A stretch of DNA of 47,580 nucleotides from an uncultured Flavobacteriales bacterium (GTDB lineage: Bacteria > Bacteroidota > Bacteroidia > AKYH767-A > 2013-40CM-41-45): NCBI GenBank assembly GCA_964355035.1, contig CAYHCU010000002.1, forward strand, positions 1-47,580, written 5' to 3'. Below are positions 30,174-47,580 of this stretch, piece by piece. A model generated the notes under the pieces. The model saw only the letters and a list, made by a program, of their open reading frames with translations, did no database searches and was not told the origin of the DNA. Both the position numbers and the translations under genes were made by a program. The stretch's first letter is position 1. Every line of letters begins with the position of its first letter.

Positions 30174-30605
30174 ATGCCATATGTAAGAATTTGGGTTCAC
30201 GCCGTGTTCTCAACAAAAAATAGAAATCCCTTTTTAAAACAAAATATCCGGAAGAAAGTTTGGGATCATATCCGGTTGAATTGCAAAGAAAAAAATATTT
30301 ACCTGCAGAATATAAATGGATCAACAGATCATGCACATTGTTTGTTTCAACTAGGAAGAACACAGACATTGTCAGAGGTTATGAATCTTATTAAAGGGGA
30401 ATCATCGCAATGGATCAACAAAAATAAGTTAACGGAAGAACATTTTAGCTGGCAGACAGAATATTGGGCTGCGTCAATAAGTGATTCGGATATTAAGAGA
30501 GTGGAAGCTTATATCAATAATCAGGAAAAGCATCATGCAGATAAAGACTTTGAAGTAGAGTTGCGGGAATTGATAAGGGAGTTTGGATTTGAAAAATGCA
30601 TATAA
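30174..30605 (+). CDS. IS200/IS605-family Y1 (HUH) transposase, REP-associated (RAYT-like)
   Basis: HUH motif (STDHAHCLF) and catalytic Tyr region (WQTEYWAAS) in a 143-aa protein. It is flanked on both sides by the same palindrome family. An upstream hairpin reads GAATGAT-N8-ATCATTC. Confidence 0.85.
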   Translation: MPYVRIWVHAVFSTKNRNPFLKQNIRKKVWDHIRLNCKEKNIYLQNINGSTDHAHCLFQLGRTQTLSEVMNLIKGESSQWINKNKLTEEHFSWQTEYWAASISDSDIKRVEAYINNQEKHHADKDFEVELRELIREFGFEKCI

Positions 30606-34349: not shown

Positions 34350-34390
34350 CTTCCCGGCCAATAGTGCAGAACACCGCATCCTCCAACAAA

Positions 34391-36655
34391 ATGAGAAAAC
34401 ACCTCCTTTTTGTGCTTTGCTTTGTCTTTCCATTATTTGGGTATTCTCAGCTAGTAATTACTAATAACGGATCAGCAATTGCATTAGCACAAGCTATTGT
34501 TGGGAATGGAATCACTGTCAGCAATGCGACGATTGACGGCGGTGTTAATTCGACAGCAACATTTACTTATTCAGGCGGTAGTCTCGGAATACCGAATGGT
34601 GTTTTGCTGACGAGCGGACTTGCTTCTGTTGTTGCCAATCCAGGAACATATTTCAGCAGTATTCAGAATGGAAATAATTTAAGTGATCCCGATGTAGTGG
34701 CTATTAGTTCTCAGGCACGTTATGATGTATGTTTGTTGGAGTTTGATTTTATTCCCGTTTGTGATACATTACACATTACTTATGTTTTCGGTTCAGAAGA
34801 ATATCCGCAATACATCAATCAATACAATGATGTTTTTGCAATGTTTCTCACCGGACCTGATCCTGCGGGAGGGAGTTATATTTCGCACAACATAGCGACC
34901 TTAGCGAATGGAATAACACCCGTTTCTATTTTTACGGTGAATGGTGGCTGGCCAATTGGTAATGGTGCTTCTAACCCGGCTTATTATGTAGACAACTACA
35001 CAAATCCAAATGCTGACATTGCTTATGATGGTTATACTATTCCAATAACTTCTGTCGTTGCTGTTACACCTTGTGTAATGTATCACATGAAAATTGCAGT
35101 AGTAGATGCCGGAAATGGAAGATATGATTCCGGTGTTTTTATACAGGGAAATACTTTCACATGCAATGTTGCACCGAGTTCGACAATCGTAGCAACGAAT
35201 GCATGTATTAATGACGGGACGGCTGCTGTTGTAGTAAGTGGTTATGCAGGCACACCAAATTTTTCATGGTTACCGGGCGGACAAACTACATCTTCAATTA
35301 CAAATTTAATTCCCGGAAATTATTCCTGTTTGATTACCTATCCAGGTGTATGCACGACAGACAGCTTAACAATCACTATCGATGATGCGCAACCAACAGC
35401 TGTTGCCATGACAGGAACAACGATTTGCATTGGACAAACAGTTGCGTTAACAGCAAACGCTTCAGGCGGCGTATCCGGTTATAATTATTCATGGACGACA
35501 GGTGGAACGCTAGTTAGTGCAAATGTGAATCCAACTGTAAACACTATTTACACAGTAGTTGCAATCGATGCTAATGGATGCAGTTCTCCTCCTGATACTG
35601 TTTTAATCAATGTGAATCCACCGTTGACGATACAGACTACAAATGCAGTGACACTTTGCTCGCCTTCATCTTTACCGCTTTCAGTAATTGCCTCTGGTGG
35701 CAATGGCACATTTAGTTACATGTGGTCGCCGGTAATCGGCCTGAGTGATCCGACAATTTCCAATCCCGTTGCCACTCCGGCAGCAACAACTTCATACACA
35801 GTTACTGTTACAGATAATTGCGGAACACCGGCAACGACATCAGCTGTTACTGTAACCGTCGAACAACAACCGGCTCCATTGATATCTGCAAATGTATTAT
35901 CAGGATGTGAACCGCTTTGTGTAGCATTTATTGATACATCCTTGTCAAATTGTTCGACAGCCACATGGATGTTTGGTGATGGCACCAATGCAACATCATG
36001 CGGGATTACAGTACATTGTTTTAATACACCGGGAACATTTACAATTACCAATACAGTGACAAGCACAGGAGGTTGTATCGGTTCGGGTACGCAGAGTAGT
36101 TACATCACTGTTTTTCCAAAACCCAAATCGTTATTTTCTTACTGGCCTAATCCGGTATTGATTATTGATCCTGCGGTTAGCTTTACAAATAATTCAACCG
36201 ATGCAATTTCCTGGCAGTGGTCTTTTAGCAATGACGTTAACGACACATCAACACTGAAAAATCCGAAGTATGTTTATCAGGATACGGGATGTTTTCCACT
36301 TCGGCTGATTGCAAAAAGTCAGTTTGGTTGCACAGATACATTGAATTCAGAAATATGTGTGGAGATGGAATTTGAATTCTACACACCAAATACTTTTACG
36401 CCAAACGGTGATGGAATAAATGAAATCTTTTTCCCGCAAGGCACAGGCATAAGTGAAAGCGATTACGAGTTTTTAATTTTTGATCGCTGGGGAAGAGAAA
36501 TTTTCAAGACCACAAAATGGGGTGAAGGCTGGAACGGAAAAGTGAAAGACGGATCAAAGATAGCGCAGCAGGACACTTATGTTTGGTTGGTAAAGGTGTA
36601 TGATGTACAAAAGAATTTTCATCAGGTTGTGGGGAGGGTGAGTTTGGTGAGGTGA
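34391..36655 (+). CDS. Secreted protein with a choice-of-anchor-L-like N-domain, Ig/PKD-like repeats and a T9SS type B (gliding-motility-associated) C-terminal domain
   Basis: A signal peptide follows ATG 34391 (MRKHLLFVLCFVFPLFGYSQ). N-domain blocks EEYPQYINQYNDVFAMFLTGP and YDGYT. The C-terminus reads FTPNGDGINEIFFPQG...FDRWG. Confidence 0.85.
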   Translation: MRKHLLFVLCFVFPLFGYSQLVITNNGSAIALAQAIVGNGITVSNATIDGGVNSTATFTYSGGSLGIPNGVLLTSGLASVVANPGTYFSSIQNGNNLSDPDVVAISSQARYDVCLLEFDFIPVCDTLHITYVFGSEEYPQYINQYNDVFAMFLTGPDPAGGSYISHNIATLANGITPVSIFTVNGGWPIGNGASNPAYYVDNYTNPNADIAYDGYTIPITSVVAVTPCVMYHMKIAVVDAGNGRYDSGVFIQGNTFTCNVAPSSTIVATNACINDGTAAVVVSGYAGTPNFSWLPGGQTTSSITNLIPGNYSCLITYPGVCTTDSLTITIDDAQPTAVAMTGTTICIGQTVALTANASGGVSGYNYSWTTGGTLVSANVNPTVNTIYTVVAIDANGCSSPPDTVLINVNPPLTIQTTNAVTLCSPSSLPLSVIASGGNGTFSYMWSPVIGLSDPTISNPVATPAATTSYTVTVTDNCGTPATTSAVTVTVEQQPAPLISANVLSGCEPLCVAFIDTSLSNCSTATWMFGDGTNATSCGITVHCFNTPGTFTITNTVTSTGGCIGSGTQSSYITVFPKPKSLFSYWPNPVLIIDPAVSFTNNSTDAISWQWSFSNDVNDTSTLKNPKYVYQDTGCFPLRLIAKSQFGCTDTLNSEICVEMEFEFYTPNTFTPNGDGINEIFFPQGTGISESDYEFLIFDRWGREIFKTTKWGEGWNGKVKDGSKIAQQDTYVWLVKVYDVQKNFHQVVGRVSLVR

Positions 36656-36791: not shown

Positions 36792-36841
36792 GTAAACACA
36801 TATGTTAACATTTTGTTTGTATTGTAAATATATATGTTTAC
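36792..36841. promoter_or_regulatory. Two related imperfect palindromes that are candidate operators for the HTH gene
   Basis: GTAAACACATATGTTAAC (36792-36809) and GTAAATATATATGTTTAC (36824-36841) both fit GTAAA-N8-TT(T/A)AC. Their starts are 32 bp apart, and the second ends 30 nt upstream of ATG 36872. Confidence 0.35.
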
Positions 36842-36871
36842 GTTTGTTGTAAATTGTAAAATTCAAATGCC

Positions 36872-37333
36872 ATGCGGAATCAAAAAAAGTTACTAATAGA
36901 GCAACTTGATAAAAAATTAAAACCTTTCCAGGGAACAGAGAAAGTTATTATTCCGGACAAGGGTTGGATATACAATATTAGAGCTGCATTGAATATGAGT
37001 CTTGATCAACTAGGCAAAAAATTAAATATGACAAGACAAGGAATAAAAAAAATTGAAGAGAGAGAATTATCGGAATCAATATCATTAAAATCTTTAAAAG
37101 AAATTGCAAAAGCATTGGATATGCAATTCGTATATGGTTTTGTTCCAAAGCACAATTCTTTAGAAAATCTGGTAAATTTTAAAGCAGAAGAGCTAGCTCG
37201 GAAAATAGTATTAAGAACAAATCAAAATATGAAATTGGAAAATCAAGGAAATAGTGAGGAACAAATTAAGCGTGCAATTTTAGACCTTGCCAATGAAATA
37301 AAAAGAGAAATGAACAAATCATTATGGGATTAG
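36872..37333 (+). CDS. HTH protein of the 'mobile mystery protein A' type (putative antitoxin/regulator)
   Basis: GWIYNIRAALNMSLDQLGKKLNMTRQGIKKIEE helix-turn-helix region and a layout that matches my memory of the TIGR02612 family. It overlaps the downstream Fic gene by 10 nt. Confidence 0.8.
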   Translation: MRNQKKLLIEQLDKKLKPFQGTEKVIIPDKGWIYNIRAALNMSLDQLGKKLNMTRQGIKKIEERELSESISLKSLKEIAKALDMQFVYGFVPKHNSLENLVNFKAEELARKIVLRTNQNMKLENQGNSEEQIKRAILDLANEIKREMNKSLWD

Positions 37334-37920
37334 ATTTGGAATATGAGGAAGGTCAAACGCCTCTAAGTGAAGAAGAAAAAGAAGGTCTTTTAATTAGTTC
37401 AATTACTACGCATGGTGATTTGGATGAGCATGAACAATTGAATATAGAGGAGGCAATTAAGTGGCTACTTAATAAAAAAATAAAAAAGGACAAAATATTA
37501 ACCGAAAGTTTCATTAAAATGGTACACAAAAAAATGTTTAATAATGTTTGGTCATGGGCAGGTGAGTTTAGAAAATCAGAAAAAAATATTGGAGTTAGAT
37601 GGATAAATATCGGAGTTGATTTAAAAACATTACTCGATGACACTAATTATTGGATTGAAAATAAAACATACGCCCCTGATGAAATAGCAATAAGATTTAA
37701 GCATAGATTGGTAAACATACATTGCTTTCCAAATGGAAATGGAAGACATTCTAGAATAATGGCAGATATTATAATCGAATCCGTTTTTGGCGAAAAAATA
37801 TTTTCTTGGAATCAGTCAAACATGGTCAAAGCAGATGATACAAGAAAAGAATATATAAGGTCAATAAGAGAGGGAGACAAAGGTGACATTAAACCATTAA
37901 TCAAATTTGCCAGAAATTAA
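37324..37920 (+). CDS. Fic-domain protein of the 'mobile mystery protein B' type (putative AMPylating toxin)
   Basis: Fic motif HCFPNGNGRHSR at 37720-37755. The N-terminal YEEGQTPLSEEEKEGL block is typical of this family. Confidence 0.88.
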   Translation: MGLDLEYEEGQTPLSEEEKEGLLISSITTHGDLDEHEQLNIEEAIKWLLNKKIKKDKILTESFIKMVHKKMFNNVWSWAGEFRKSEKNIGVRWINIGVDLKTLLDDTNYWIENKTYAPDEIAIRFKHRLVNIHCFPNGNGRHSRIMADIIIESVFGEKIFSWNQSNMVKADDTRKEYIRSIREGDKGDIKPLIKFARN

Positions 37921-38030
37921 GATCGCAGCTTTAACACATCGATTGCTTTTACACCAAACAGCAATGGAATAAACGAAATTTTTCTTCTGCAAGTTACAGG
38001 CATAAGTGAAAGCGATTACGAGTTTTTATC
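37921..38030 (+). pseudogene. Remnant of a T9SS type B C-terminal domain gene (about 35 codons)
   Basis: It translates as DRSFNTSIAFTPNSNGINEIFLLQVTGISESDYEFL. Nucleotides 37996-38028 are identical over 33 nt to 36443-36475 in the intact gene upstream. Homology begins immediately after the Fic stop codon, in the same frame, and ends abruptly at about 38029. Confidence 0.7.
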
Positions 38031-38493
38031 TGTCTTTTTAAAAACGAAAACGTTTACCCAAAGCGGAATGAGACATTAATAAGAGAGAGTTTTGCGAGTT
38101 TGTACTATTCCGGTTGACATTCCACCCGGCGGGAAGTTGATCAGATGGAGAGTTTGTAAGACAATTTATATGATTTATGATTGAAATGGCAAAATTGCTG
38201 GATTTTTCGTTATACTTGTGAAAGCAAAGGGATATATACGGGTTTAGTTTTTAGAAGGGAGTGGTAAGTGAAGTGATATTAGAAACAAACAGTGGTTAAT
38301 TGCCAAGTACAATTCAGGGAATTGTTGTTCTACACGAAGGATGATCGGGAAGAAGCCGGTAAAAGTATTGATGGAATAAATGTGATGGGGTGTGATTATG
38401 TCGGAATAGAGAGAGTAAATGTAGGGTATAGGAGATATGTAAAGCAAATCGAAATACTAGGTAGCGCTATAAACTAACAATTTCACTTTATTT

Positions 38494-39159
38494 ATGAAAG
38501 ATTCAGAATTTATATTAAAACTCTTGGACATCAACCAACCCATGGCTGAAAATCCAACACGCTTTTCTACATTAGCGTTGCTTTTAACAAGTGGACGGAA
38601 ACTTTTTGGTTGCAATTTGGAAACCGGAAAATATGAATTGAATGAGGTAAACGATGAAAACTTTATTGATAAAACATATCATTCATTTCAATTTACCGCA
38701 TTAATAAATTACTTGATTTTATTAGAGCAAATTGGAAGCATTTTTATTAAAAAAAACGGCAGTAAAATAAAAGAAACTAATGGAATATTTTGCGCACTAA
38801 CATATTTTTCAAGTTTAACGGATACTGACAAAATAGAAGCTATTCAAGCTTTACGTAATTCTCTAGTTCATAAATTCGGATTAGCTACTGAAAAAAAACC
38901 TCATAAGATGCCTCCGAGGAAATTCATACTAAGTATTGCACGAAATAGTGAAATTGTAGAGCAACCTAAATCTGACTGGGACGGAACGTTTTCTGACAAA
39001 TCTGACGAGACCTCAACAACAATATTTATTGTAGATCTCATAATACTAATTGAAACTGTTTACCAAAATGTAATTCAGGAAAATAAAAACGGTAATGTAG
39101 AAATGATCTTGAAGGATGGAATGAGCGAATTAGAAAGCAGATATACTTTCATATATTAA
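38494..39159 (+). CDS. Hypothetical protein, possibly a HEPN-like RNase (RNxxxH motif)
   Basis: 221-aa ORF with ALRNSLVH (R121-x4-H126, nt 38854-38871). This fits the Rx4-6H HEPN motif with the usual polar residue after the Arg. I recognise no other motif. Confidence 0.45.
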   Translation: MKDSEFILKLLDINQPMAENPTRFSTLALLLTSGRKLFGCNLETGKYELNEVNDENFIDKTYHSFQFTALINYLILLEQIGSIFIKKNGSKIKETNGIFCALTYFSSLTDTDKIEAIQALRNSLVHKFGLATEKKPHKMPPRKFILSIARNSEIVEQPKSDWDGTFSDKSDETSTTIFIVDLIILIETVYQNVIQENKNGNVEMILKDGMSELESRYTFIY

Positions 39160-39269
39160 GATAATCAAAGCCTTTCATGCTATTCGCGTAACTTCTGCCA
39201 TAGAAGCTCGGTAAACGCATGAAATATAGATTATAAAAGAAATTGCGAATTTAACATATAAATTAAGAT

Positions 39270-39515
39270 ATGATTAAAATCAACTTTCAATTTGCCAATA
39301 ATGAAAAGCCAACAATAGCGGCAACGATTCAACAAAATATTCGTCAGCGAATACAGGATGAAAAATTGCATGAAACTACAGATGCAACTGTTAACTTGGA
39401 GTATACTGGAAACGGAACAATACTTATGGAAATGCCGATAAGTATTCCTATCAATTCAAATACGCGAATTATTGAAATATCATTTGAGGAAATAAAGGCA
39501 TTAATATCAAACTGA
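39270..39515 (+). CDS. Hypothetical small protein (81 aa)
   Basis: The ORF lies 6 nt upstream of the TPR gene on the same strand. I recognise no motif. Confidence 0.45.
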   Translation: MIKINFQFANNEKPTIAATIQQNIRQRIQDEKLHETTDATVNLEYTGNGTILMEMPISIPINSNTRIIEISFEEIKALISN

Positions 39516-39521
39516 CTCATT

Positions 39522-40508
39522 ATGGAGAATATTGACCAAAACAATACCGCAATAATTCCTGTTGGTTCAACGGACTTAGTTAGGGTTGGTAATACGCTTT
39601 CAATTACAAATAAAATATTAATTGGAGACATTGAGAAGGATTTTAACCTAGCCTTTTATTTATTGAATAACAGAGATCTACTATTAAATACTGACGACTA
39701 TTGCTTTAAGTTGGAAAATGATTCCCAATACAGGAAGTCAAACAAATTTAAATACATTTCTTCCAACGTCGATAATTATTCTAAGGCAATTACATTATTT
39801 AATTCAATACTTCAAACTAAACCCTATCATTGCCTTTCTTATGAAATGAGGGCAGTCGCTAAAATTAAATTAAAGAATTATTTAGGAGCAATCGAGGATT
39901 ATTCTAAGGCAATTGAAATTAATTCAAAATACGCTTTTGCTTTTAATGGTAGAGGAAACGCTAAGTTGCAATTAAAGGATTACTTAGGGGCAATCGAGGA
40001 TTATGACAAGGCAATTGAAATTGATTCAAAATACGCTTTTGCTTTTAATGGTAGAGGAAACGCTAAGTTGCAATTAAAGGATTACTTAGGGGCAATCGAG
40101 GATTATGACAAGGCAATTGAAATTGATTCAAATATTGCAACGGTGTTTAATAATCGAGGGAAGAGCAAGTATAATTTAAAAGATTACGCAGGGGCAATCG
40201 AGGATTATGACAAGGCAATTGAAATTTATCCAAATTTTGCCAATGCATTTTATTGTCGAGGCGTCGCCAAGGTTTACGTAAAGAATTACACTGGAGCAAT
40301 AGATGATTTTTCTAAGGTAATTGAAATTAGTCCTAAAAACGCCTTTGCATTTAATGCTCGAGGCATGACCAATGAACAACTAAAAAATTATGTTGGAGCA
40401 ATTGAGGATTATTCCAAGGCAATTGCAATTGATCCAAATTACATCACTGCGCGTAATTTTCGAGAAAATGCATTAAAGAAATTGGCGGATTTGACTGGCC
40501 ATGAATAA
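39522..40508 (+). CDS. TPR-repeat protein (about 7 TPRs) with a distinctive N-terminal module
   Basis: Seven 34-aa units of the form Y.GAIEDY.KAIEI.P....AF..RG.AK. N-terminal MENIDQNNTAIIPVGSTDLVRVGNTLSITNKIL is shared with the protein starting at 41954. Confidence 0.85.
   Translation: MENIDQNNTAIIPVGSTDLVRVGNTLSITNKILIGDIEKDFNLAFYLLNNRDLLLNTDDYCFKLENDSQYRKSNKFKYISSNVDNYSKAITLFNSILQTKPYHCLSYEMRAVAKIKLKNYLGAIEDYSKAIEINSKYAFAFNGRGNAKLQLKDYLGAIEDYDKAIEIDSKYAFAFNGRGNAKLQLKDYLGAIEDYDKAIEIDSNIATVFNNRGKSKYNLKDYAGAIEDYDKAIEIYPNFANAFYCRGVAKVYVKNYTGAIDDFSKVIEISPKNAFAFNARGMTNEQLKNYVGAIEDYSKAIAIDPNYITARNFRENALKKLADLTGHE
39888..40229 (+). repeat. 102-bp (one TPR unit) tandem repeats with a perfect 109-nt duplicated stretch
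   Basis: GCAATCGAGGATT recurs at 39888, 39990, 40092 and 40194. Nucleotides 39922-40030 are identical to 40024-40132. Confidence 0.9.
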
Positions 40509-40539
40509 GTGATAAAACAACATTCAACAATATTTGAAT

Positions 40540-41913
40540 ATGCAAACCGAAGCTGTTTTTGAAAATATAGCAGAACGAATACAACAAGAAATCAGTAAGG
40601 CACAAAAGTCAATATTTATTGCATTGGCGTGGTTTACTAATAAAAACCTTTACAATGAATTGTTGAAAAAAGCAAGAAATGGTTGCACTGTTTCTCTCAT
40701 TATTTCCAACGACAATATTAATCTTAATTCATTAATTGATTTTGAACAGTTGATTGCCGCCAAATCAAAAGTTTATAAAATAGGGAACGGCGAAACGGAA
40801 TTAATGCACAATAAATTTTGTGTTATCGATTATAGCACAGTCATTACAGGTTCTTATAACTGGAGTTACAAAGCAGAAAGTAATTTTGAGAATGTAATCA
40901 TTACAAATAATGATACAACACTAGCGGAACAATTTATTTCAGAATTTAATAATATTCGAAAACAATATTATCCAGATGATAAAAAAGAAGAAGTAATTTT
41001 TCCGTTAAACAAAATCATTAAACGTTTGGAAATTCTCAAAAATTACATTCTGCTTGAAGACGTTGATGAATTAGGCAAGGAAACAGCAAAACTTAAGGAA
41101 TACGAATTTAACTCTGACTTACTTGAAATAATTTATGATGTAAGGGAAGAAGAATTCGCGTCAGCAATAAATAAAATTCAAAAATTTATTTCTAAAAATC
41201 AACAACTTTCAATTTGGACTGACCCCGAAATAGCGGCACTTAAACTTGAGATTAAAAATCTTGAGAATCAACTCAATGCATATGGAAATGAAAAGATAGA
41301 GCTGGAGAAACTACTTTTGGAGTTTCATCATCGACATACAATCGAACTTGGAGAAGTTATTCTTGATATTCTGAAATTAAGAAAACGCAAATTCAAAGCT
41401 GATAAAATAAAATTTGAAGAAGCGGAAAATGATGAAAGACAATATCGTGAGCAAGTCAATAAAGAAAAAGATATAAAAATATTTGAATTAACAGATGATC
41501 AAAAAAAAGAGTTAAAAATAAAATTTCGGAAAGCAACTGTCTTGTGCCACCCGGACAAATTTACAAACGAGTCAATTGAAATTCAAAAGTTAGCAGAAGA
41601 AATATTCAAAGAATTAAACGAGGCGAATTCAAAAAATGATTTGTCTAGGGTTATCGAAATTTTAGCTAATCTTGAAAAGGGTATTCTCTCAACTAACAAA
41701 GGAGACATATTAGCAGACAAAGAAAAATTAAGAGCAACAATAAATAGATTGCGAATAAAGGTTGAAGTATTAGAAACCGAAATTATAGACATTAAGCAAA
41801 ATGACACTTTCAAAATAATTATTGAAATTCAGGACTGGGATCAATATTTTAAAAACACAAAGGAGAAACTGAAAAGGGAACTTGAAGAATTACGACTTGA
41901 AATTAAAATTTAA
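40540..41913 (+). CDS. Single-HKD phospholipase-D/Nuc-like domain fused to coiled coils and a J domain
   Basis: Complete HxK(x)4D(x)6GSxN motif (MHNKFCVIDYSTVITGSYN, nt 40807-40860). J-domain helix II, HPD and helix III (ELKIKFRKATVLCHPDKF...AEEIFKELNEA; HPD at 41548-41556). Heptad-rich linkers. ATG 40540 is preferred over TTG 40534. Confidence 0.8.
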   Translation: MQTEAVFENIAERIQQEISKAQKSIFIALAWFTNKNLYNELLKKARNGCTVSLIISNDNINLNSLIDFEQLIAAKSKVYKIGNGETELMHNKFCVIDYSTVITGSYNWSYKAESNFENVIITNNDTTLAEQFISEFNNIRKQYYPDDKKEEVIFPLNKIIKRLEILKNYILLEDVDELGKETAKLKEYEFNSDLLEIIYDVREEEFASAINKIQKFISKNQQLSIWTDPEIAALKLEIKNLENQLNAYGNEKIELEKLLLEFHHRHTIELGEVILDILKLRKRKFKADKIKFEEAENDERQYREQVNKEKDIKIFELTDDQKKELKIKFRKATVLCHPDKFTNESIEIQKLAEEIFKELNEANSKNDLSRVIEILANLEKGILSTNKGDILADKEKLRATINRLRIKVEVLETEIIDIKQNDTFKIIIEIQDWDQYFKNTKEKLKRELEELRLEIKI

Positions 41914-41953
41914 AGTTGCACTAAAAATAATTAAAACTGATAACAGGAACAAA

Positions 41954-42613
41954 TTGTCGGAAGATATAAAACAAAATTCAATAATACCCATTTGCTCATC
42001 TGACCTTGTTAGAGTAGGAAATTCCATTGCCTTAACTAATAAAATACTCAAAGAACATGATGAAAGGTTTATTGAGAAAACTTTTGAAACGATAGGTAAT
42101 CAAAAGTGGTGTATAAAAAATCTTTATGTTAGTAGGTACAGGAATGGCGATATAATACCACAAGTACAAGACGAGGTTCAGTGGGCATCATTAACAACTG
42201 GCGCTTGGTGTTATTACCAAAATGATCCGGATAATGGCTTTAACTATGGTAAGTTGTATAATTGGTTTGCAGTTGATGATGTTCGTGGACTTGCGCCTTT
42301 AGGTTTTCATATTCCAACAGATTTGGAATGGAAAATGTTCTATGATTATTTAGGCACCTTTGGAGGTGAATCATGGCGCTGGTTGATCCTTGATTTTTTA
42401 GGAAAGTACGGAAAAATTGCATTTCTTCCCGGAGGCTGCAGGGACAATAATGGGATGTTCTTCGAGCGGCTTAGCTTTGGTTACTGGTGGAGTTCTAAAG
42501 AAGTAAATATCTCGTTTGCTTGGAACCTAAGGCTCTCTTGTATAATTAACTCTGAAAACATGAACAGCAAAAATAAGCGTCATGGTTTTTCGGTTCGTTG
42601 CATCAAAGATTGA
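41954..42613 (+). CDS. FISUMP (Fibrobacter succinogenes major paralogous) domain protein with no signal peptide, carrying the N-terminal module shared with the TPR protein
   Basis: C-terminal blocks GKLYNWFAV, GFHIPTDLEW and GFSVRCIKD. I propose the TTG start at 41954, which gives MSEDIKQNSIIPICSSDLVRVGNSIALTNKIL and aligns with the N-terminus of the TPR protein. The ORF-track start at 41882 would overlap the upstream gene. Confidence 0.72.
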   Translation: MSEDIKQNSIIPICSSDLVRVGNSIALTNKILKEHDERFIEKTFETIGNQKWCIKNLYVSRYRNGDIIPQVQDEVQWASLTTGAWCYYQNDPDNGFNYGKLYNWFAVDDVRGLAPLGFHIPTDLEWKMFYDYLGTFGGESWRWLILDFLGKYGKIAFLPGGCRDNNGMFFERLSFGYWWSSKEVNISFAWNLRLSCIINSENMNSKNKRHGFSVRCIKD

Positions 42614-42781
42614 AAATTTCCTGTTTGATAATTACTAACTTCCATGTTTAAACAAGATGAGTTATGAATTCTATGGGACATGCTTTATGAAAGAGAATTT
42701 TACATGCGATTCTGTGAGAACTTGGTAGAGAAACTCGTTTTTATAATCCGATTAAAAATGCGAACAGAAAGATAAATTTTG

Positions 42782-43366
42782 ATGAAACTCATATATTCAA
42801 CATATACAGAACTTTTACTTAAATACAGTAATCGATCAGGGATTCCATATTTCGAATTACTTCTAACTAAGGAATGGGAGGGAAAAAGAAATCAAATCTT
42901 AAATAGAGATAACCAAACATGTTGCTATTGTGGGAAAAAATCTACAGAATACATTGAAGGCTTAGGTAATATTTGGATTTACATACAAGAGAGAATTGAA
43001 AGGGGGTATAGTTCCGATGGTGATGGGGTTGAGGAATTTGAATATGTTAATGAAGTTACTTACCACGAAGTTTCAGACAAACCCTATTATTTACATGTCC
43101 ATCACAAGTATTATATTTTAAGTTGTTTACCATGGGAATATTCTGATGATGCGCTTATGTCATTGTGTAGCTGGTGTCATTGGAAATTTCATGCTGAGAA
43201 TACCGTACCGGTTTTTGAAAATCAACAGAAAATTATTAATCTTAACTACCACCCTTGCCATAGATGTAATGGTGCCGGGTGGTTTCCACAATATAACCAT
43301 GTTCAAAGCGGAATTTGTTTCCGTTGTAGTGGCGAAAAATATGAGGAGTTAATTAAAGAAACATGA
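42782..43366 (+). CDS. HNH endonuclease with a C-terminal DnaJ-type CxxCxGxG zinc finger
   Basis: CCYCGKK...LHVHHKYY...LCSWCHWKFH forms the HNH beta-beta-alpha metal finger. The C-terminus reads CHRCNGAGW...GICFRCSGEKY. Confidence 0.72.
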   Translation: MKLIYSTYTELLLKYSNRSGIPYFELLLTKEWEGKRNQILNRDNQTCCYCGKKSTEYIEGLGNIWIYIQERIERGYSSDGDGVEEFEYVNEVTYHEVSDKPYYLHVHHKYYILSCLPWEYSDDALMSLCSWCHWKFHAENTVPVFENQQKIINLNYHPCHRCNGAGWFPQYNHVQSGICFRCSGEKYEELIKET

Positions 43367-43464
43367 ATTATATTCGAAAAAACCACCATCTAGAAAGCAA
43401 GGAAAATAATTTGAATCAAATTCTTTTTTAAATATTGAGCTGCGAAAAGAAAAATAATAGCATT

Positions 43465-44148
43465 ATGAATTTAGACAAACTCTTCGAATTATATGAACAA
43501 GAAGAAGAACGACGTTATCAAGAAGAACTTTCAGGACCAGAGCCGATGAGCGCATTGAAAAGGGAGAATATATATAAGTTAGCATACGACAATTTCAAAT
43601 TCGTGCTCGGAAAACATGTTTTTGGTAAAACAACTTTAACAGGAGAAAACCTTGATGCAATGCAAAAGTATGATATCTCAGTAGAAGAAGCATCAATAAT
43701 TTATATGTACACTAGTCATGGAATTTTTGACGATGTGAATAGTCAACTTAGATGCCGGCCGGAATATTTAGATGAAGATATTAAAGAGTATTGCAGATTA
43801 TTGGATGATGCATTAGAAAAAATGCCATCGCATAATAAATGTACAGTTTACAGAGACATTTCATGCTCAGAAGAGGAGTCGGCTTCAATTATAAATAATT
43901 ATCGATTAAGCATAGAGAAGGAAATAATAGAAAGTGCGTTTGTTTCAACACATATTGAAAATGAAAGATGGTCAGAAGCATCGGGGGTGCATATAATCAT
44001 TAAAACTAAAGAAAAAAGCAATGGAAAGGGTTTAATGGAGTTGAGTTTTAATGCAACTGAGGGAGAGGTGTTATTTAAAAAGGGAACGCCTTTTAAAGTA
44101 GATGGTGTCGATGTGGAAAACAATATGGTATATTTAACTGAAATATAA
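43465..44148 (+). CDS. ADP-ribosyltransferase of the R-S-E (C3/VIP2-like) class
   Basis: IIYMYTSHGIFDDVNSQLR (the Y-T...N..LR block), TVYRDIS (catalytic Arg), FVSTH (S-T motif), ATEGEVLF (ExE, nt 44059-44067). No signal peptide. Confidence 0.72.
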   Translation: MNLDKLFELYEQEEERRYQEELSGPEPMSALKRENIYKLAYDNFKFVLGKHVFGKTTLTGENLDAMQKYDISVEEASIIYMYTSHGIFDDVNSQLRCRPEYLDEDIKEYCRLLDDALEKMPSHNKCTVYRDISCSEEESASIINNYRLSIEKEIIESAFVSTHIENERWSEASGVHIIIKTKEKSNGKGLMELSFNATEGEVLFKKGTPFKVDGVDVENNMVYLTEI

Positions 44149-44494
44149 GTAGCCTAATCAAAATTTAGTGAGAATTGTTCCTTAGATTAGAATTCAAATG
44201 CGGCGGCTTTTTTGCCTCCGAATCGTGAGCGGTCACCTGTTTCAATTTCCAAAGCTTAATAAGCATTAGAAAACTTCATTTCAATCCGCCCCCATCAACC
44301 ATTATTCCATAATCCCCCAAAAAAACTAACTGCTTGAAATTTACCGTTATTAAATATGAACACCCCATGTTTTGAGCGGAGGGGTGGTACGTTGAAAACT
44401 ATTTCAGGGTTTTTTGATATCGATTTGTGTTTGCTCGTGTATCTTCGTTTTAGAGATTGAGAAAAATTATTCATCAATTAAAACCGGTAATAAA

Positions 44495-44818
44495 ATGGGA
44501 GAATTACTCAAAGCATATTGTGAAAAATGCGGATTTACTAAAAAGACTTGTTTGGGTTCAGGGGAAGCTGACTTTGACTACAACTGTAATTTCCCTGCGA
44601 TAGATTTAGAATACAATAAGTTTACGGTAGGAAATATTTTAAAGGAAGAAGAATCAAAAGGGAGATATAAATTTTATAATGATCCAACGATGTTCCTGGA
44701 AAAACCTGAAGGTAGGGTGCATAAGTGTAGAGATTATTCTTTGCAACGGGAAAATAATTATTGTCCGATATGCGAAAGATTTACAATGAAATTTGAAAGT
44801 GACGGGAATTATGACTAG
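44495..44818 (+). CDS. Small zinc-ribbon protein (107 aa)
   Basis: CEKCGF near the N-terminus and CPICERF near the C-terminus. The internal ATG at 44495 is preferred because the upstream part of the ORF is a low-complexity leader. Confidence 0.5.
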   Translation: MGELLKAYCEKCGFTKKTCLGSGEADFDYNCNFPAIDLEYNKFTVGNILKEEESKGRYKFYNDPTMFLEKPEGRVHKCRDYSLQRENNYCPICERFTMKFESDGNYD

Positions 44819-45011
44819 ACAGTGTCGATTTAATTGCCGGGAGGAAAGGGATTAGAGGGATTTAAAGGTTTAAGGTGTTTAATTATTTAAATGGTTTAAC
44901 GAGTTTAAAAAAGGTAATCGAAGAAGTTTAATTTTTATAAGCCGGAAAAGGGTCTATAAAATTATTGGATCATGAGTGACTTTTAGAAGTGTAATTATAA
45001 CAATAAATAGA

Positions 45012-45422
45012 ATGGAAAAGGAAAAAAAATATAGGTATTTAATTATTGCAGAAATTAGGAACAAGGGGTATCTCCTTAAATTTATGTCTGATTTAAAAGA
45101 AGCAGACAAATATGCCAAAGAAATATTTGAATTGTCCAATGAGTATTCAATTTATGAGCAGTATAAAATTGAAACTAAACTAACTTATTTCGCCTCCTAC
45201 CATGTAAATGGTACTGAAGTTTATATTGGAAACGGTTGTTGCGGGCAATCCAATGGAGTTTACACGGTTGGTACAATGAAAGTAGACATAAATAATTTTC
45301 GGTTAAATTCATTTATCAGAGAGCGGGAAAATCACTCAACAGTTTTTCCCCGTGAAGATCAATGGGATCAGGTTGACAAATTTTTAAAATTATTCCCATC
45401 GCCGAATTGGATTGCTAATTGA
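45012..45422 (+). CDS. Hypothetical protein (137 aa)
   Basis: ORF on the island strand. I recognise no motif. Confidence 0.45.
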   Translation: MEKEKKYRYLIIAEIRNKGYLLKFMSDLKEADKYAKEIFELSNEYSIYEQYKIETKLTYFASYHVNGTEVYIGNGCCGQSNGVYTVGTMKVDINNFRLNSFIRERENHSTVFPREDQWDQVDKFLKLFPSPNWIAN

Positions 45423-45454
45423 AAGATATTTAAATAAAACAAAAATATATTAAC

Positions 45455-46015
45455 ATGAACTTAAATTCTTTACATAAGCGCTTTCTTTTTTCAATTCTTT
45501 TTTCATTAATTTTCTCAAATATTTCCTTTGCTCAATTGAGCAATAAAAGTATTTGTACAGACAGAGACAAATTTTGTTTTCAATTATCATTCGAACAGAT
45601 AGATTTACCGGAGTTATTCGATAAACTTTACGTCATCAACAAGAATTTAATTTATCTCACGGGACTTAACGTTGCTTCAAATAAAACTTTATTTTCGGTT
45701 AGCAAATATGTTAATCAAAAAGATATAAGTTTTGATAGCGCTTTTTCAATGACCGTCAATTATGTGCCCAAAGTAGGAAGCTTTAATAATAGCGACTATC
45801 ATCTATTGGATTTTGGAAAATATAAAGTTAATGGAAAAGAATTACGGTATAAAATTTCGAATCCATTAGAAAATGAAATATCCATCATGTACTATTTTAT
45901 GAAAGGCAATTCATCTAAAGAGATGTACGAAATAAAAGCAACTTGTAATAGAGAAACGCAAAAGCAATGCAAACAGTTTATGGAAAATGTTGCGCTCTCG
46001 GTTGTACTGCATTGA
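45455..46015 (+). CDS. Hypothetical secreted protein
   Basis: Clear signal peptide (FLFSILFSLIFSNISFAQ). I recognise no motif. Confidence 0.55.
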   Translation: MNLNSLHKRFLFSILFSLIFSNISFAQLSNKSICTDRDKFCFQLSFEQIDLPELFDKLYVINKNLIYLTGLNVASNKTLFSVSKYVNQKDISFDSAFSMTVNYVPKVGSFNNSDYHLLDFGKYKVNGKELRYKISNPLENEISIMYYFMKGNSSKEMYEIKATCNRETQKQCKQFMENVALSVVLH

Positions 46016-46087
46016 AGCACCTTTACAGTTTGCATCTCATTGTATTCTAAAAATGTCAGCGTTAAAAAGAAACAAGGGAAATTGAAT

Positions 46088-46127
46088 AAAAACTTTGCAC
46101 GGCCCTTAAGGGCCGTGCAAAGTTTTT
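46088..46127. repeat. REP-type palindrome (copy 4) between convergent genes
   Basis: AAAAACTTTGCACGGCCCTTAAGGGCCGTGCAAAGTTTTT is a perfect 40-nt palindrome. Its core is identical to the core of the 30611-30662 copy. Confidence 0.85.
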
Positions 46128-47580
46128 TATTCTACAACAAGCTTCTTAACTTCACTTGTTTTCCCATTGGTCACTCTCACATTATAAATTCCTTTTGCAA
46201 GAGAAGTAAGATCAATCGCTTTACGGTCACCCGACCAGTCGAAATGTTTTTCTAATTCGCCGATCATATTATAAATAGAAAGTGTATAATGTTGATTTGA
46301 TTTCCCGTTGGTGTTGATGGTGACAAATCCTGCTGTTGGATTTGGGTAGATGGCAAATCCAATATAATCGATTTCTTTCACGCTTAATGTAACGGCTGAA
46401 TCATAGTAGATGATAAGATTACTGTTTACATCGAGGACAGGATTAAATCCATCACTGCAATCGGTGCAAGTTGTACCGGTTACGCAGCCCGGATTGTTTG
46501 GGTGACATTGATCAACGTATCCTGTAAAAAATTCGTAGCCAAGACTGATATTTTGATTTGCAACAAAAGATGTCATGTCGTAATCAAAATAAGGAGCAAT
46601 AGAACCGGGGCACCATCCAGAGCGGGCATAAGTCCATGTGCCACTTTGTGGTGAGCAACCGTCAGGGTTAGGATTACATGCTTGCCAATTGTGTTGTGAA
46701 AATGTATTGACCCCATTTACAAAAATTGCATGAGTTGCATCATAAAATTCTGCGGCATTGCCGGTGTTTAAAGATCCCCATCCATGACCGGTGCTCACCA
46801 ATTTTAATTTGGAAGCAATTGCATGGTCAGGAAAAGTATAATTAAAATCAGGCACAGGCTGAAGATTAGCATAGTCGCCAAAAGGATAAACATCTTTCCA
46901 AACTCTTTGCACGCTACTGTATTTATATTGAGGAGCGCCTTCTTTGAAATCAAATTTCAATTGGAAGACAAAGCCGTTATCCAACGTAGTGCAATTCGCT
47001 CTGAACGTCACCTTGCCCTGTAAGAGTGCCCTGTAATCAGCGACATTTATTTGATGAGAACATGCTACACCGAAAGGCGTAATATATCGGATAATCTCGA
47101 ACCATTGTCCATCGTGTCCTTTTGCATCGATACTTGCAACTCTGTCATAAGGACCGCAACCACCGGAAGGACAAGTAACAACCAAGGTAGCAATGATGGT
47201 ATCAAAAGCACCTACATACGAAGGAAGTATTCCCTCGCGTGTTGTCGAACTTGTATCTGTGTTCAACCAAATTCCACTGAAGGCAGAAAGATTGTTAATG
47301 TCGCTGACTGTTTGAACAACATTGATGTTCACGTTTACAACATTTGTTGCACCGAAATTGCTTACGGAAGTAATTTGAATGGTGTAAGGTCCGTAAGAAG
47401 GAGGAGTCCACAAAGCTGTGTAGTGACCGTTTCCATAAGTATCCATTGTTAAATTCTGTCCGCTGATTGAAATAGCAACACTTTGTACACTGAACAATCC
47501 GGCATAATCAATATCTACTAAAGCAGCAATTTGCATAGTAGAAAGAGTCGGCATATATACATTAGCGCCATCAACAGGAT
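46127..47580 (-). CDS. PNGase-F-like protein with a T9SS type A sorting domain. The 5' end lies beyond the window.
   Basis: The frame stays open upstream of the ORF-track Met at 47554 out to the window edge. Blocks CPSGGCGPYDR, GHGWG and W.YARSGWCPG resemble PNGase-F-type domains. The C-terminus reads IYPNPTAGFVTI...GIYNVRV. Confidence 0.75.
   Translation of the reverse strand, partial: PVDGANVYMPTLSTMQIAALVDIDYAGLFSVQSVAISISGQNLTMDTYGNGHYTALWTPPSYGPYTIQITSVSNFGATNVVNVNINVVQTVSDINNLSAFSGIWLNTDTSSTTREGILPSYVGAFDTIIATLVVTCPSGGCGPYDRVASIDAKGHDGQWFEIIRYITPFGVACSHQINVADYRALLQGKVTFRANCTTLDNGFVFQLKFDFKEGAPQYKYSSVQRVWKDVYPFGDYANLQPVPDFNYTFPDHAIASKLKLVSTGHGWGSLNTGNAAEFYDATHAIFVNGVNTFSQHNWQACNPNPDGCSPQSGTWTYARSGWCPGSIAPYFDYDMTSFVANQNISLGYEFFTGYVDQCHPNNPGCVTGTTCTDCSDGFNPVLDVNSNLIIYYDSAVTLSVKEIDYIGFAIYPNPTAGFVTINTNGKSNQHYTLSIYNMIGELEKHFDWSGDRKAIDLTSLAKGIYNVRVTNGKTSEVKKLVVE

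Follow-up and report, generated by a model that had tools for sequence, protein, structure and literature searches.

Does a J domain couple a single-HKD nuclease-like protein of an uncultured Flavobacteriales bacterium to interchangeable partners with a common N-terminal tag?

Why should a nuclease-like domain of the phospholipase D (PLD) type and a J domain, which recruits and activates Hsp70 chaperones, be joined in a single bacterial polypeptide? This question is raised by a protein, here called PLD-J, that is encoded on the forward strand of a 47,580-nt stretch of DNA (the window) from an uncultured Flavobacteriales bacterium (GenBank assembly GCA_964355035.1, contig CAYHCU010000002.1). 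Its open reading frame (ORF) starts at 40534 (TTG) or 40540 (ATG) and ends at 41913, and the region 40540..41913 (+ strand) encodes a PLD domain, a helical scaffold and a J domain in 457 aa, counted from the ATG, as seen from the ORF call, Pfam and profile matches and an AlphaFold2 model. An earlier note, made from the sequence of the window, had described PLD-J as a stand-alone fusion. The domains were recognized correctly, but the coupling to adjacent genes was missed: genes bearing a common N-terminal motif adjoin PLD-J in 46 of 58 loci. With a probability of about one half, we think that PLD-J serves as both effector and scaffold in a modular, mobile conflict system of two or more genes, most likely directed against phages or other mobile elements, that is coupled to Hsp70 through the J domain.

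The loci analyzed are the window and 57 related loci, which were found in 185,579 species genomes by a pattern-limited scan. When ORFs were called and clustered in them, the genes adjoining PLD-J mostly fell into few clusters, and the sole feature common to these is an N-terminus of the form ..NxSLIPIGSTxLVRVxNSIxITNKILxE... This shared motif, in the following called the tag, is about 35 residues long. A hidden Markov model (HMM) of the tag was run against all six frames of all 58 loci, including the whole window. A tagged ORF adjoins PLD-J on the same strand in the 46 loci mentioned (E<1e-3), upstream in 34, downstream in nine and on both sides in three, and beyond the genes adjoining PLD-J the model had no match in any of the 58 loci or the window. 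The gaps between the tagged ORF and PLD-J are mostly 0-30 nt, or the two genes overlap. A divergent motif is seen by eye or with a weak E-value in four further loci (L025, L048, L049 and L050), and most of the remaining motif-less loci are truncated or PLD-only matches. It is thus a tagged partner gene that emerges from the survey of conserved neighbors proposed in the earlier note. Behind the constant tag, the partners possess C-termini that are unrelated to each other, namely TPR, ACSF4/PQQ propeller, WD40, three kinds of LRR, Fib_succ_major, WG_beta_rep and an unnamed WxW/LPW repeat, and in a distant clade a NosD-type beta-helix stands behind the tag. The NCBIfam matches in the partners comprised TPR and Fib_succ_major domains only, with no model for the tag. 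Searching an index of 5.8 billion proteins with the motif profile returned 10 short fragments only, and the tag counts given here cover the fetched loci.

The window itself contains two such partners, one on each side of PLD-J. Partner gene 1 (39522..40508, + strand) ends 32 nt ahead of the PLD-J start and encodes 328 aa, with the tag followed by TPR repeats (TPR_1, 161 bits; tag HMM, E=2.7e-15). Its tagged N-terminus reads MENIDQNNTAIIPVGSTDLVRVGNTLSITNKIL, in which the tag proper, AIIPVGSTDLVRVGNTLSITNKILIG (39546..39623, + strand), is evident from the translation, the alignments and the HMM match. The TPR region of this gene is a 102-bp tandem array (39868-40442) of 5.6 copies with 78-87% matches. 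As two of its units are nearly identical, the repeat domain seems to have gained or lost units recently. Partner gene 2 (41954..42613, + strand) combines the tag with a Fib_succ_major (FISUMP) domain (110 bits; TIGR02145). Its likely start is the TTG at 41954, 40 nt past the PLD-J stop, which gives the N-terminus MSEDIKQNSIIPICSSDLVRVGNSIALTNKIL; this start was deduced partly from a homologue in locus L029, MSEDETNNNSLVPI. The tag of partner 2, NSIIPICSSDLVRVGNSIALTNKILK (41975..42052, + strand), was identified by HMM match and translation, and the sequence is absent from the seed of the HMM, yet matches it with E=6.9e-15.

PLD-J begins with a single-HKD domain of the PLD/Nuc type (aa 1-145; 40540..40974, + strand), which was assigned by PLDc_2, by matches to profiles of solved structures and by Foldseek. 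The Pfam match to PLDc_2 covers aa 15-139 and with 86.8 bits lies above the cut-off of 27, and the catalytic motif HxK(x)4D(x)6GSxN is complete in the translation (H90-N107, HNKFCVIDYSTVITGSYN; 40807..40860, + strand). A family profile built from 100 diverse relatives matches MitoPLD/Zucchini (5e-20), Nuc (1byr, 2e-18) and NucT, with matches to PDB profiles ranging from 5e-20 to 1e-15, and the AlphaFold2 model superimposes on Nuc 1byr with a Foldseek template-modeling (TM) score of 0.79 and a root-mean-square deviation of 2.7. In the same 100 relatives, H90, K92, D97, G104, S105 and N107 are each at least 90% conserved. The domain is therewith placed in the single-HKD nuclease group by sequence, profile and fold, and a nuclease activity is predicted. 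The HKD domain had been proposed for the N-terminal ~145 aa from the motif, and the catalytic histidine, numbered 92 in the earlier note, was the right residue, with a number counted from the TTG; from the start coordinate given there it is H90. Nuc and Zucchini act as dimers, and by analogy the single HKD domain of PLD-J would have to pair with another copy for an active site to arise. Foldseek searches of PLD-J against the PDB and viral models gave matches confined to the PLD part, with none spanning the whole architecture.

The remainder of the protein forms what we call the CC-J module. It begins with a conserved helical scaffold (aa 156-316; 41005..41487, + strand), for which AlphaFold2 predicts helices at 156-311 with high confidence and at which the stand-alone homologues (P0133, Salmonella Q8ZR54) begin. 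The J domain follows (aa 317-380; 41488..41679, + strand; FRKATVLCHPDKF) with helix II, HPD, helix III and helix IV, as assigned by Pfam, the family profile and AlphaFold2; its sequence reads LTDDQKKELKIKFRKATVLCHPDKF..., and its helices are predicted at 319-336, 346-364 and 368-379. The HPD tripeptide (H337 P338 D339; 41548..41556, + strand) lies within CHPDK (aa 336-340), in the loop joining helices II and III. The module is completed by C-terminal helices (aa 381-457; 41680..41910, + strand), a second part that is conserved, modeled by AlphaFold2 and kept in the variant P0250. The J-domain model PF00226 is matched at E<1e-3 by 84 of the 100 relatives, with identities down to 27% and a best E-value of 1e-8, and the family profile matches more than 40 solved J domains, among them those of auxilin, mL77, DnaJ, Sis1 and Sec63. 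H337, P338 and D339 are each at least 90% conserved, and the signatures F/Y-R-K of helix II and AxxxFxxLxxAY of helix III are present. To judge from these profiles, the J domain is secure at the family level, though sub-threshold in the window protein alone; by its HPD conservation and helix II/III signatures it looks functional. By motif and profile, the C-terminal part thus qualifies as a class C J-domain protein whose score stays below the curated Pfam cut-off. The profile check proposed earlier for both domains thereby places the PLD domain above its cut-off and confirms the J domain for the family. For the long coiled coils that had been described between them, helicity is borne out, but the AlphaFold2 model, based on a 100-sequence alignment, predicts a compact all-helical assembly (predicted local distance difference test score, pLDDT, 91; predicted TM score, pTM, 0.82) and not merely an extended coiled coil. 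This model replaced an earlier one based on 18 close homologues (pLDDT 72, pTM 0.37).

To which part of PLD-J does the tag belong? Most relevant in this respect are relatives with a different domain composition. P0250 carries an ExoI-like exonuclease in place of the PLD domain and retains CC-J, and the next gene starts with MNLIPKSTGHLERVGKSIELTNKLL. P0133 is a 303-aa CC-J protein without a nuclease, 59% identical to the C-terminal part of the window protein, and the end of a tagged LRR gene lies 18 nt upstream. For P0185 a tag gene is found on the downstream side, and in P0249 a DnaQ-like exonuclease is added ahead of the PLD domain. Because the motif persists when the PLD domain is replaced by ExoI or is absent, it tracks the CC-J module and not the PLD domain, and the nuclease is an exchangeable add-on to the pair of CC-J and tagged partner. 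The same separation is found between loci: across 820 locus pairs, the identity of PLD-J correlates with the identity of the motif (Spearman 0.50) and not with the similarity of the partner C-termini (0.00), where the p-values are inflated by shared ancestry and the contrast between the two correlations is what counts. The partner bodies are unrelated in 74% of the locus pairs in which PLD-J is at least 70% identical.

An exchange of this kind is directly visible in the DNA of the loci L014 and L015, which are 97% identical through an upstream Ser/Thr kinase gene and the tag and 91% identical through PLD-J. Between the tag and PLD-J lies non-homologous DNA, encoding Fib_succ_major in one and WD40 in the other, and the partner body has therewith been exchanged exactly after the tag. 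Natural fusions also occur. In P0184, represented by 16 contigs, PLD-CC-J is fused end to end with a partner from partner residue 2 onwards (E 4e-48), and HPD is replaced by NLD. In P0188 the PLD domain runs directly into the body of a repeat partner, with J domain and motif lacking, and sequence inspection indicates a similar arrangement in P0244 and P0218. The association of the tag with CC-J, their co-inheritance, the swap and the fusions together say that the functional unit is probably a nuclease plus a binding domain, for which CC-J and the tag would provide a non-covalent, exchangeable connector. As the one clear loss of HPD coincides with a covalent partner fusion, the tripeptide seems to matter when the partner is supplied in trans.

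The system is not only modular but also mobile. A 3.87-kb cassette of kinase, partner and PLD-J genes is 98.3% DNA-identical in a metagenome-assembled genome of Paludibacter (Bacteroidales; L009:3529-7398) and in Lunatimonas salinarum (Cytophagales; L015:3529-7397), with unrelated flanks. In a second type of cassette, an uncharacterized 243-aa gene replaces the kinase. The natural fusions, the exact swaps of partner domains and this recently transferred, 98%-identical cassette in different orders show that PLD-J and its partners are a modular, horizontally mobile unit. Around the cassette in the window, a stretch (36800-46100) has a GC content of 29-36%, compared to about 33-44% elsewhere in the window, and thus forms a low-GC island. 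Across the loci, the immediate neighbors include TIR_2, SIR2_2, MNT/HepT, PemK/MazF, KilA-N and Pkinase; other neighbors are RelE, a DUF4258 protein, RVT_1 with PDDEXK_3 and a DnaB_C-type ATPase, and an AAA_15/AAA_21 ATPase. Ten neighbor proteins were checked individually for their domains.

How could these parts work together? In the mechanism that we propose, the adjacent genes would encode interchangeable recognition subunits, in which a variable repeat or binding domain (TPR and Fib_succ_major in the window) stands behind the constant 35-residue tag. The repeat domain would recognize a target, for example a protein or structure of the invader, and the tag would be a dedicated docking element on the helical scaffold and probably also a client segment of Hsp70. 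Hsp70 binds segments in which basic residues flank Leu/Ile/Val cores. Such cores with basic flanks abound in the tag, which could therefore be a natural DnaK client. The J domain would recruit host DnaK via its HPD, and DnaK would load, exchange, or release and strip the tagged partners. This coupling would then time the recruitment of the single-HKD nuclease to the target of the repeat domain, or its activation there, with nucleic acid as the presumable substrate; by analogy with the dimeric enzymes, a partner-driven clustering could be the switch that pairs two HKD domains. DnaK might act in either direction, activating the system or restraining it until DnaK is titrated during infection. 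An Hsp70 cycle of loading, exchange and stripping would explain how a single nuclease can work with several partners, why the trans systems keep HPD while the cis fusion has lost it, and why J domain and tag are dispensable where PLD and repeats are fused directly. The chaperone-gated nuclease activity that the earlier note had envisaged would be compatible with the conserved HPD.

A more far-reaching version of this proposal, which we consider tentative, is that PLD-J represents a new class of prokaryotic immune module, in which a built-in J domain uses the Hsp70 cycle to load, exchange or release tag-addressed receptors on a common PLD or ExoI nuclease. The receptors would be TPR, WD40, LRR, beta-helix or lectin-like domains, and the whole would amount to a chaperone-powered "plug-and-play" combination of receptor and effector, which may in addition sense how much DnaK is available in an infected cell.

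The CC-J module is also found by itself. A Salmonella protein of 391 aa (Q8ZR54/WP_001033457.1; L067:6001-7176) and an Enterobacter protein of 389 aa (WP_023307022.1; L068:6001-7170) are homologous to aa 156-437 of PLD-J with 29-33% identity, and both contain LCHPD. They share the helical-J homology and differ from PLD-J in lacking a nuclease and an adjacent tagged partner. The respective genes occur on more than 1000 contigs and are automatically annotated as "DNA repair protein/ATPase" or "DnaJ family molecular chaperone", and no family for the stand-alone CC-J proteins was found in NCBIfam. The CC-J module is older and broader than any defense role. When used as a DNA query, the Salmonella gene had no match in 5,426 E. 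coli genomes. The "plasmid" record that contains the Salmonella gene looks like chromosomal DNA (pheP, rclABC), and on an Enterobacter plasmid the stand-alone CC-J gene is found beside Hcp and a polymorphic-toxin gene.

Several points weigh against PLD-J being a subunit of an Hsp70-coupled conflict system. CC-J is a monocistronic core gene in Salmonella and Enterobacter, without an abutting annotated same-strand gene, and therefore the module is not intrinsically a part of defense. One locus, L033, which is the only such case, contains a full-length PLD-J gene with both flanks and has no detectable partner. The DnaJ score of the window protein in Pfam is 24.3 bits, below the cut-off of 27.8, and model positions 12-50 alone are matched. 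In the neighborhoods read, no dedicated Hsp70 gene was noticed, without a systematic search, and the involvement of DnaK is accordingly suggested by the J domain alone; inspection of the clusters in the 58 neighborhoods, without a profile test, likewise revealed no recurrent large conserved neighbor family that could be an Hsp70. The binding of the tag to the scaffold is proposed from genomics only, the system and its function are known here from sequence alone, and the association with defense islands was judged from a sample of neighbors.

Could the pair instead be a toxin-antitoxin-like addiction module, with PLD-J as the toxin and the tagged repeat protein as a chaperone-dependent antitoxin, comparable to the chaperone-addiction segment of TAC systems? 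The genes are tightly coupled and often overlap, the cassette is mobile, and the neighbors are rich in PemK, MNT/HepT, PIN and RelE. Unlike a dedicated antitoxin, however, the partners are large, mutually unrelated binding scaffolds, of which several can belong to one PLD-J gene; the covalent fusions of PLD and partner (P0188, P0244, P0218, P0184) are hard to square with a removable inhibitor, and pairs of partner and CC-J without any nuclease occur. We think that such a module is improbable. To the same degree we doubt that PLD-J is a housekeeping or accessory enzyme of nucleic-acid processing (repair, competence or RNA turnover), which adaptors would direct to cellular substrates and in which the J domain would aid folding or assembly. 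NucT is a competence-associated nuclease and Zucchini an RNA-processing nuclease, and as both are among the closest structures, they would fit such a role, as would the automatic annotation "DNA repair protein" of the stand-alone CC-J core gene in Salmonella and Enterobacter. Against it stand the sporadic occurrence of close relatives, with only the 57 loci of the pattern-limited genome scan, the near-identical cassettes in different orders with unrelated flanks, the exchange of partner domains between close relatives, and the location of the gene in a low-GC island among Fic, ADP-ribosyltransferase and HNH-like genes.

A somewhat fainter prospect is a purely structural role of the J-like segment, as a helical hairpin that no longer engages Hsp70, so that PLD-J would be a nuclease with a helical domain for oligomerization and partner binding. 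The sub-threshold Pfam score with its short matched segment would agree with this, as would the 16 of 100 relatives that miss PF00226 at E<1e-3 and the substitution of HPD by HTD in one close relative and by NLD in one fusion. Against a mere hairpin, HPD is kept at 90% or more down to 27-30% identity together with the basic and aromatic residues of helix II and the helix III signature; moreover, the profile matches dozens of bona fide J domains, and the sole clear loss of HPD coincides with a covalent partner fusion. Very unlikely, finally, is a tag that sorts delivered effectors for secretion, packaging or loading into a compartment, as known from polymorphic toxin systems, with PLD-J as their chaperone or adaptor. 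Proteins that have nothing in common but a short and constant N-terminal tag would suit it, as would the Enterobacter plasmid with its Hcp and polymorphic-toxin genes and an ADP-ribosyltransferase exoenzyme-like gene nearby in the window. Among the 58 neighborhoods, however, there is no recurrent gene for a secretion system, shell or transporter, the tagged proteins are binding scaffolds and not toxins, and the sole enzyme domains (PLD, ExoI) are on the untagged J protein.

If PLD-J is regarded as the effector and scaffold subunit of a conflict system, which known systems does it resemble? Nuc of the Salmonella plasmid pKM101, NucT of H. pylori and Zucchini/MitoPLD share their fold with PLD-J, as well as an HxK(x)4D(x)6GSxN motif that is complete. 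These enzymes are stand-alone proteins of ~150-200 aa, periplasmic or membrane-anchored, whereas PLD-J adds a 310-aa helical-J module and the coupling to tagged repeat proteins. For the J-domain part, the pairs HscB-IscU-HscA and auxilin-clathrin-Hsc70 (class C) are most similar, as in these a J domain is likewise joined to a domain that binds a specific client. Their clients contain short conserved hydrophobic Hsp70-binding segments, LPPVK in IscU and QLMLT in clathrin; the candidate segment in the PLD-J system would be ..LIPIGSTxLVRV..ITNKIL... Outside the J domain, HscB and auxilin are unrelated to PLD-J in sequence, and the "clients" of PLD-J would be an interchangeable family, served by a J protein that also carries a nuclease. 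By analogy, PLD-J seems to work most like a dedicated J-protein/client pair that has been grafted onto a sensor-effector conflict system.

Among defense systems, the PLD domain weakly matches DISARM DrmC (36.5 bits with DrmC models) and Mokosh MkoB. An identity of PLD-J with DrmC was rejected: the DrmC model NF038319 gave 18.6 bits, where its cut-off is 133, and companion genes are missing, as no DrmA/B/E, methylase or Mokosh helicase genes were found in the window and none recur among the neighbor clusters of the loci. STAND/NLR-like sensors (Avs, bNACHT) couple TPR, WD40 or LRR recognition to a death effector and resemble the PLD-J partners in this respect; PLD-J is not such a sensor, as no NTPase domain was present in PLD-J or in the 12 partners scanned. 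Host DnaJ has been implicated in phage sensing by bNACHT25 (PMC12169576). A logic of effector-associated domains, in which a short shared N-terminal module links separately encoded parts, was described by Kaur et al. 2020 (PMC7159879), where DnaJ is named solely in connection with GAP1-N2 GTPase/HSP70/GrpE systems, which are from actinobacteria and firmicutes, and the PLD-J system is absent. Different from the STAND and effector-associated systems, only the sensors of the PLD-J system carry the tag, whose counterpart is a helical-J scaffold, and the J domain is built in and not borrowed from a host DnaJ.

In this context the hscC locus of E. coli K-12 (676-682 kb; L072) was also inspected. It contains a Sel1-repeat gene and a DUF1266 gene that overlaps the start of a J-protein gene, an arrangement present twice beside hscC (ybeQ/ybeT, Sel1-repeat; ybeR/ybeU, DUF1266; djlB/djlC). 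The locus is thematically alike in that a J gene overlaps an upstream partner and genes for TPR-like repeat proteins are close by; it differs in having its own Hsp70, in lacking a nuclease and in the position of the HPD-like site of DjlC near the N-terminus (LCHPE, ~residue 29). A relationship of PLD-J to DjlB and DjlC, which are membrane-anchored (PMC8215388), was dismissed, as BLASTP revealed no similarity (E 0.71 and 0.83).

The family to which PLD-J belongs is not small. An exhaustive HMMER scan of 1.84 billion representatives yielded 316 clusters at 50% identity with E<1e-30, and the best 150 clusters are mostly full length, about 450-470 aa, with identities down to 30%. The architecture is therewith common and not rare, but unnamed, the source names being only "PLD-like domain-containing" or "DUF1669". 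Close relatives are spread sporadically over all classes of Bacteroidota, including Riemerella, Flavobacterium psychrophilum, Lunatimonas, Paludibacter, Chitinophagaceae, Saprospiraceae and Aureispira, and the phage and plasmid collections contained PLD-only or CC-J-only relatives and never the full architecture. That no characterized protein with this architecture is known, as the earlier note had put it, agrees with our searches: PADLOC v2 and NCBIfam hold no matching family, the CoCoNuT paper and an Hsp70 review do not describe it, and in the main text of the J-domain survey of Malinverni et al. "PLD" occurs only within "pLDDT". The full-text literature search found no description either; the survey of bacterial J proteins by Barriot et al. 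2020 (J Mol Biol) could list it.

What would follow if our reading is correct? Sensor-effector modules with a PLD nuclease are of a known kind; new would be the built-in J domain and the tag-addressed, swappable receptors. PLD-J would belong to the first defense-type system with a J domain embedded in the effector, so that a nuclease would be linked to Hsp70 as a central chaperone, and a constant docking tag on swappable binding domains would be a simple genetic route to diverse recognition. Chaperone biology would gain a dedicated J-protein/client pair with a defined client peptide, and phage-defense biology a compact two-gene system, and there would be a handle on the stand-alone CC-J core gene of Salmonella and Enterobacter. 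Even without a defense role, the tag and scaffold would constitute a new and widespread module of protein-protein coupling, represented in at least 316 clusters at 50% identity.

Some partners deviate from the common pattern. In a clade that is 47-48% identical (L048:7374-8795 and L049:4023-5504), the tagged partner on the downstream side is no repeat protein: behind a divergent tag, LSNLGNLLKLTDKII, it carries a DnaQ-like exonuclease motif (IVDIETDG), and a gene with a HEPN-like motif (RNNLYH) comes next. The distant member P0257, on a 1.8-kb contig, is followed by an ORF whose start, MSERRDLVVVASTLPTVVRQRLEV, resembles the motif loosely. In Riemerella anatipestifer RCAD0997 (L023:4065-5126) the partner is a remnant of ~100 aa, and by eye an IS1595-type transposase lies between partner and PLD-J; in the Riemerella strain NJ-1 (L011) the partner is intact with 244 aa. 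Beside one cassette, a weakly matching VWA protein is followed by genes that by eye encode a PP2C-type phosphatase and a kinase, which resembles a TerY-P trio.

In the window, the low-GC island is bounded by genes for cargo of type IX secretion, a PKD/CHU_C gene at 34364-36655 and a PNGase-like gene with Por_Secre_tail at 46127-47554, and an IS200-like Y1 transposase is encoded at 30174-30605. Scans for sigma-70 promoters and terminators gave counts at the level of shuffled sequence. Upstream of the cassette, an overlapping gene pair (36872-37917) encodes HTH_3 (153 aa) and Fic/DOC (198 aa) proteins, of which the Fic protein matches the PADLOC candidate system PDC-S04 (70 bits) and SoFic and the HTH protein weakly matches HTH_VI, RmrA and capH. 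An 81-aa ORF (39270-39515) ends 6 nt ahead of the TPR partner gene. Downstream of the cassette, a 237-aa protein (43435-44148) contains an ADP-ribosyltransferase exoenzyme domain (PF03496, 56 bits) and is followed by several small ORFs without a family match. Closer to partner gene 2, a Cys-rich protein of 195 aa (42779-43366; CCYCGKKS..HVHHKYY..CSWCHWKFH) has no Pfam match and appears HNH-like by eye; a homologue of it (cluster 38) lies directly upstream of the partner gene in L028. Between the Fic gene and the 81-aa ORF, a 221-aa ORF (38494-39159) without Pfam or PADLOC match contains the HEPN-like motif ALRNSLVH (Rx4H). Small proteins with an RNxxxH (HEPN-like) motif, unrelated to each other, also adjoin the cassette in L010, L020, L029, L031, L035, L037 and L069, and they may be a variable third component.

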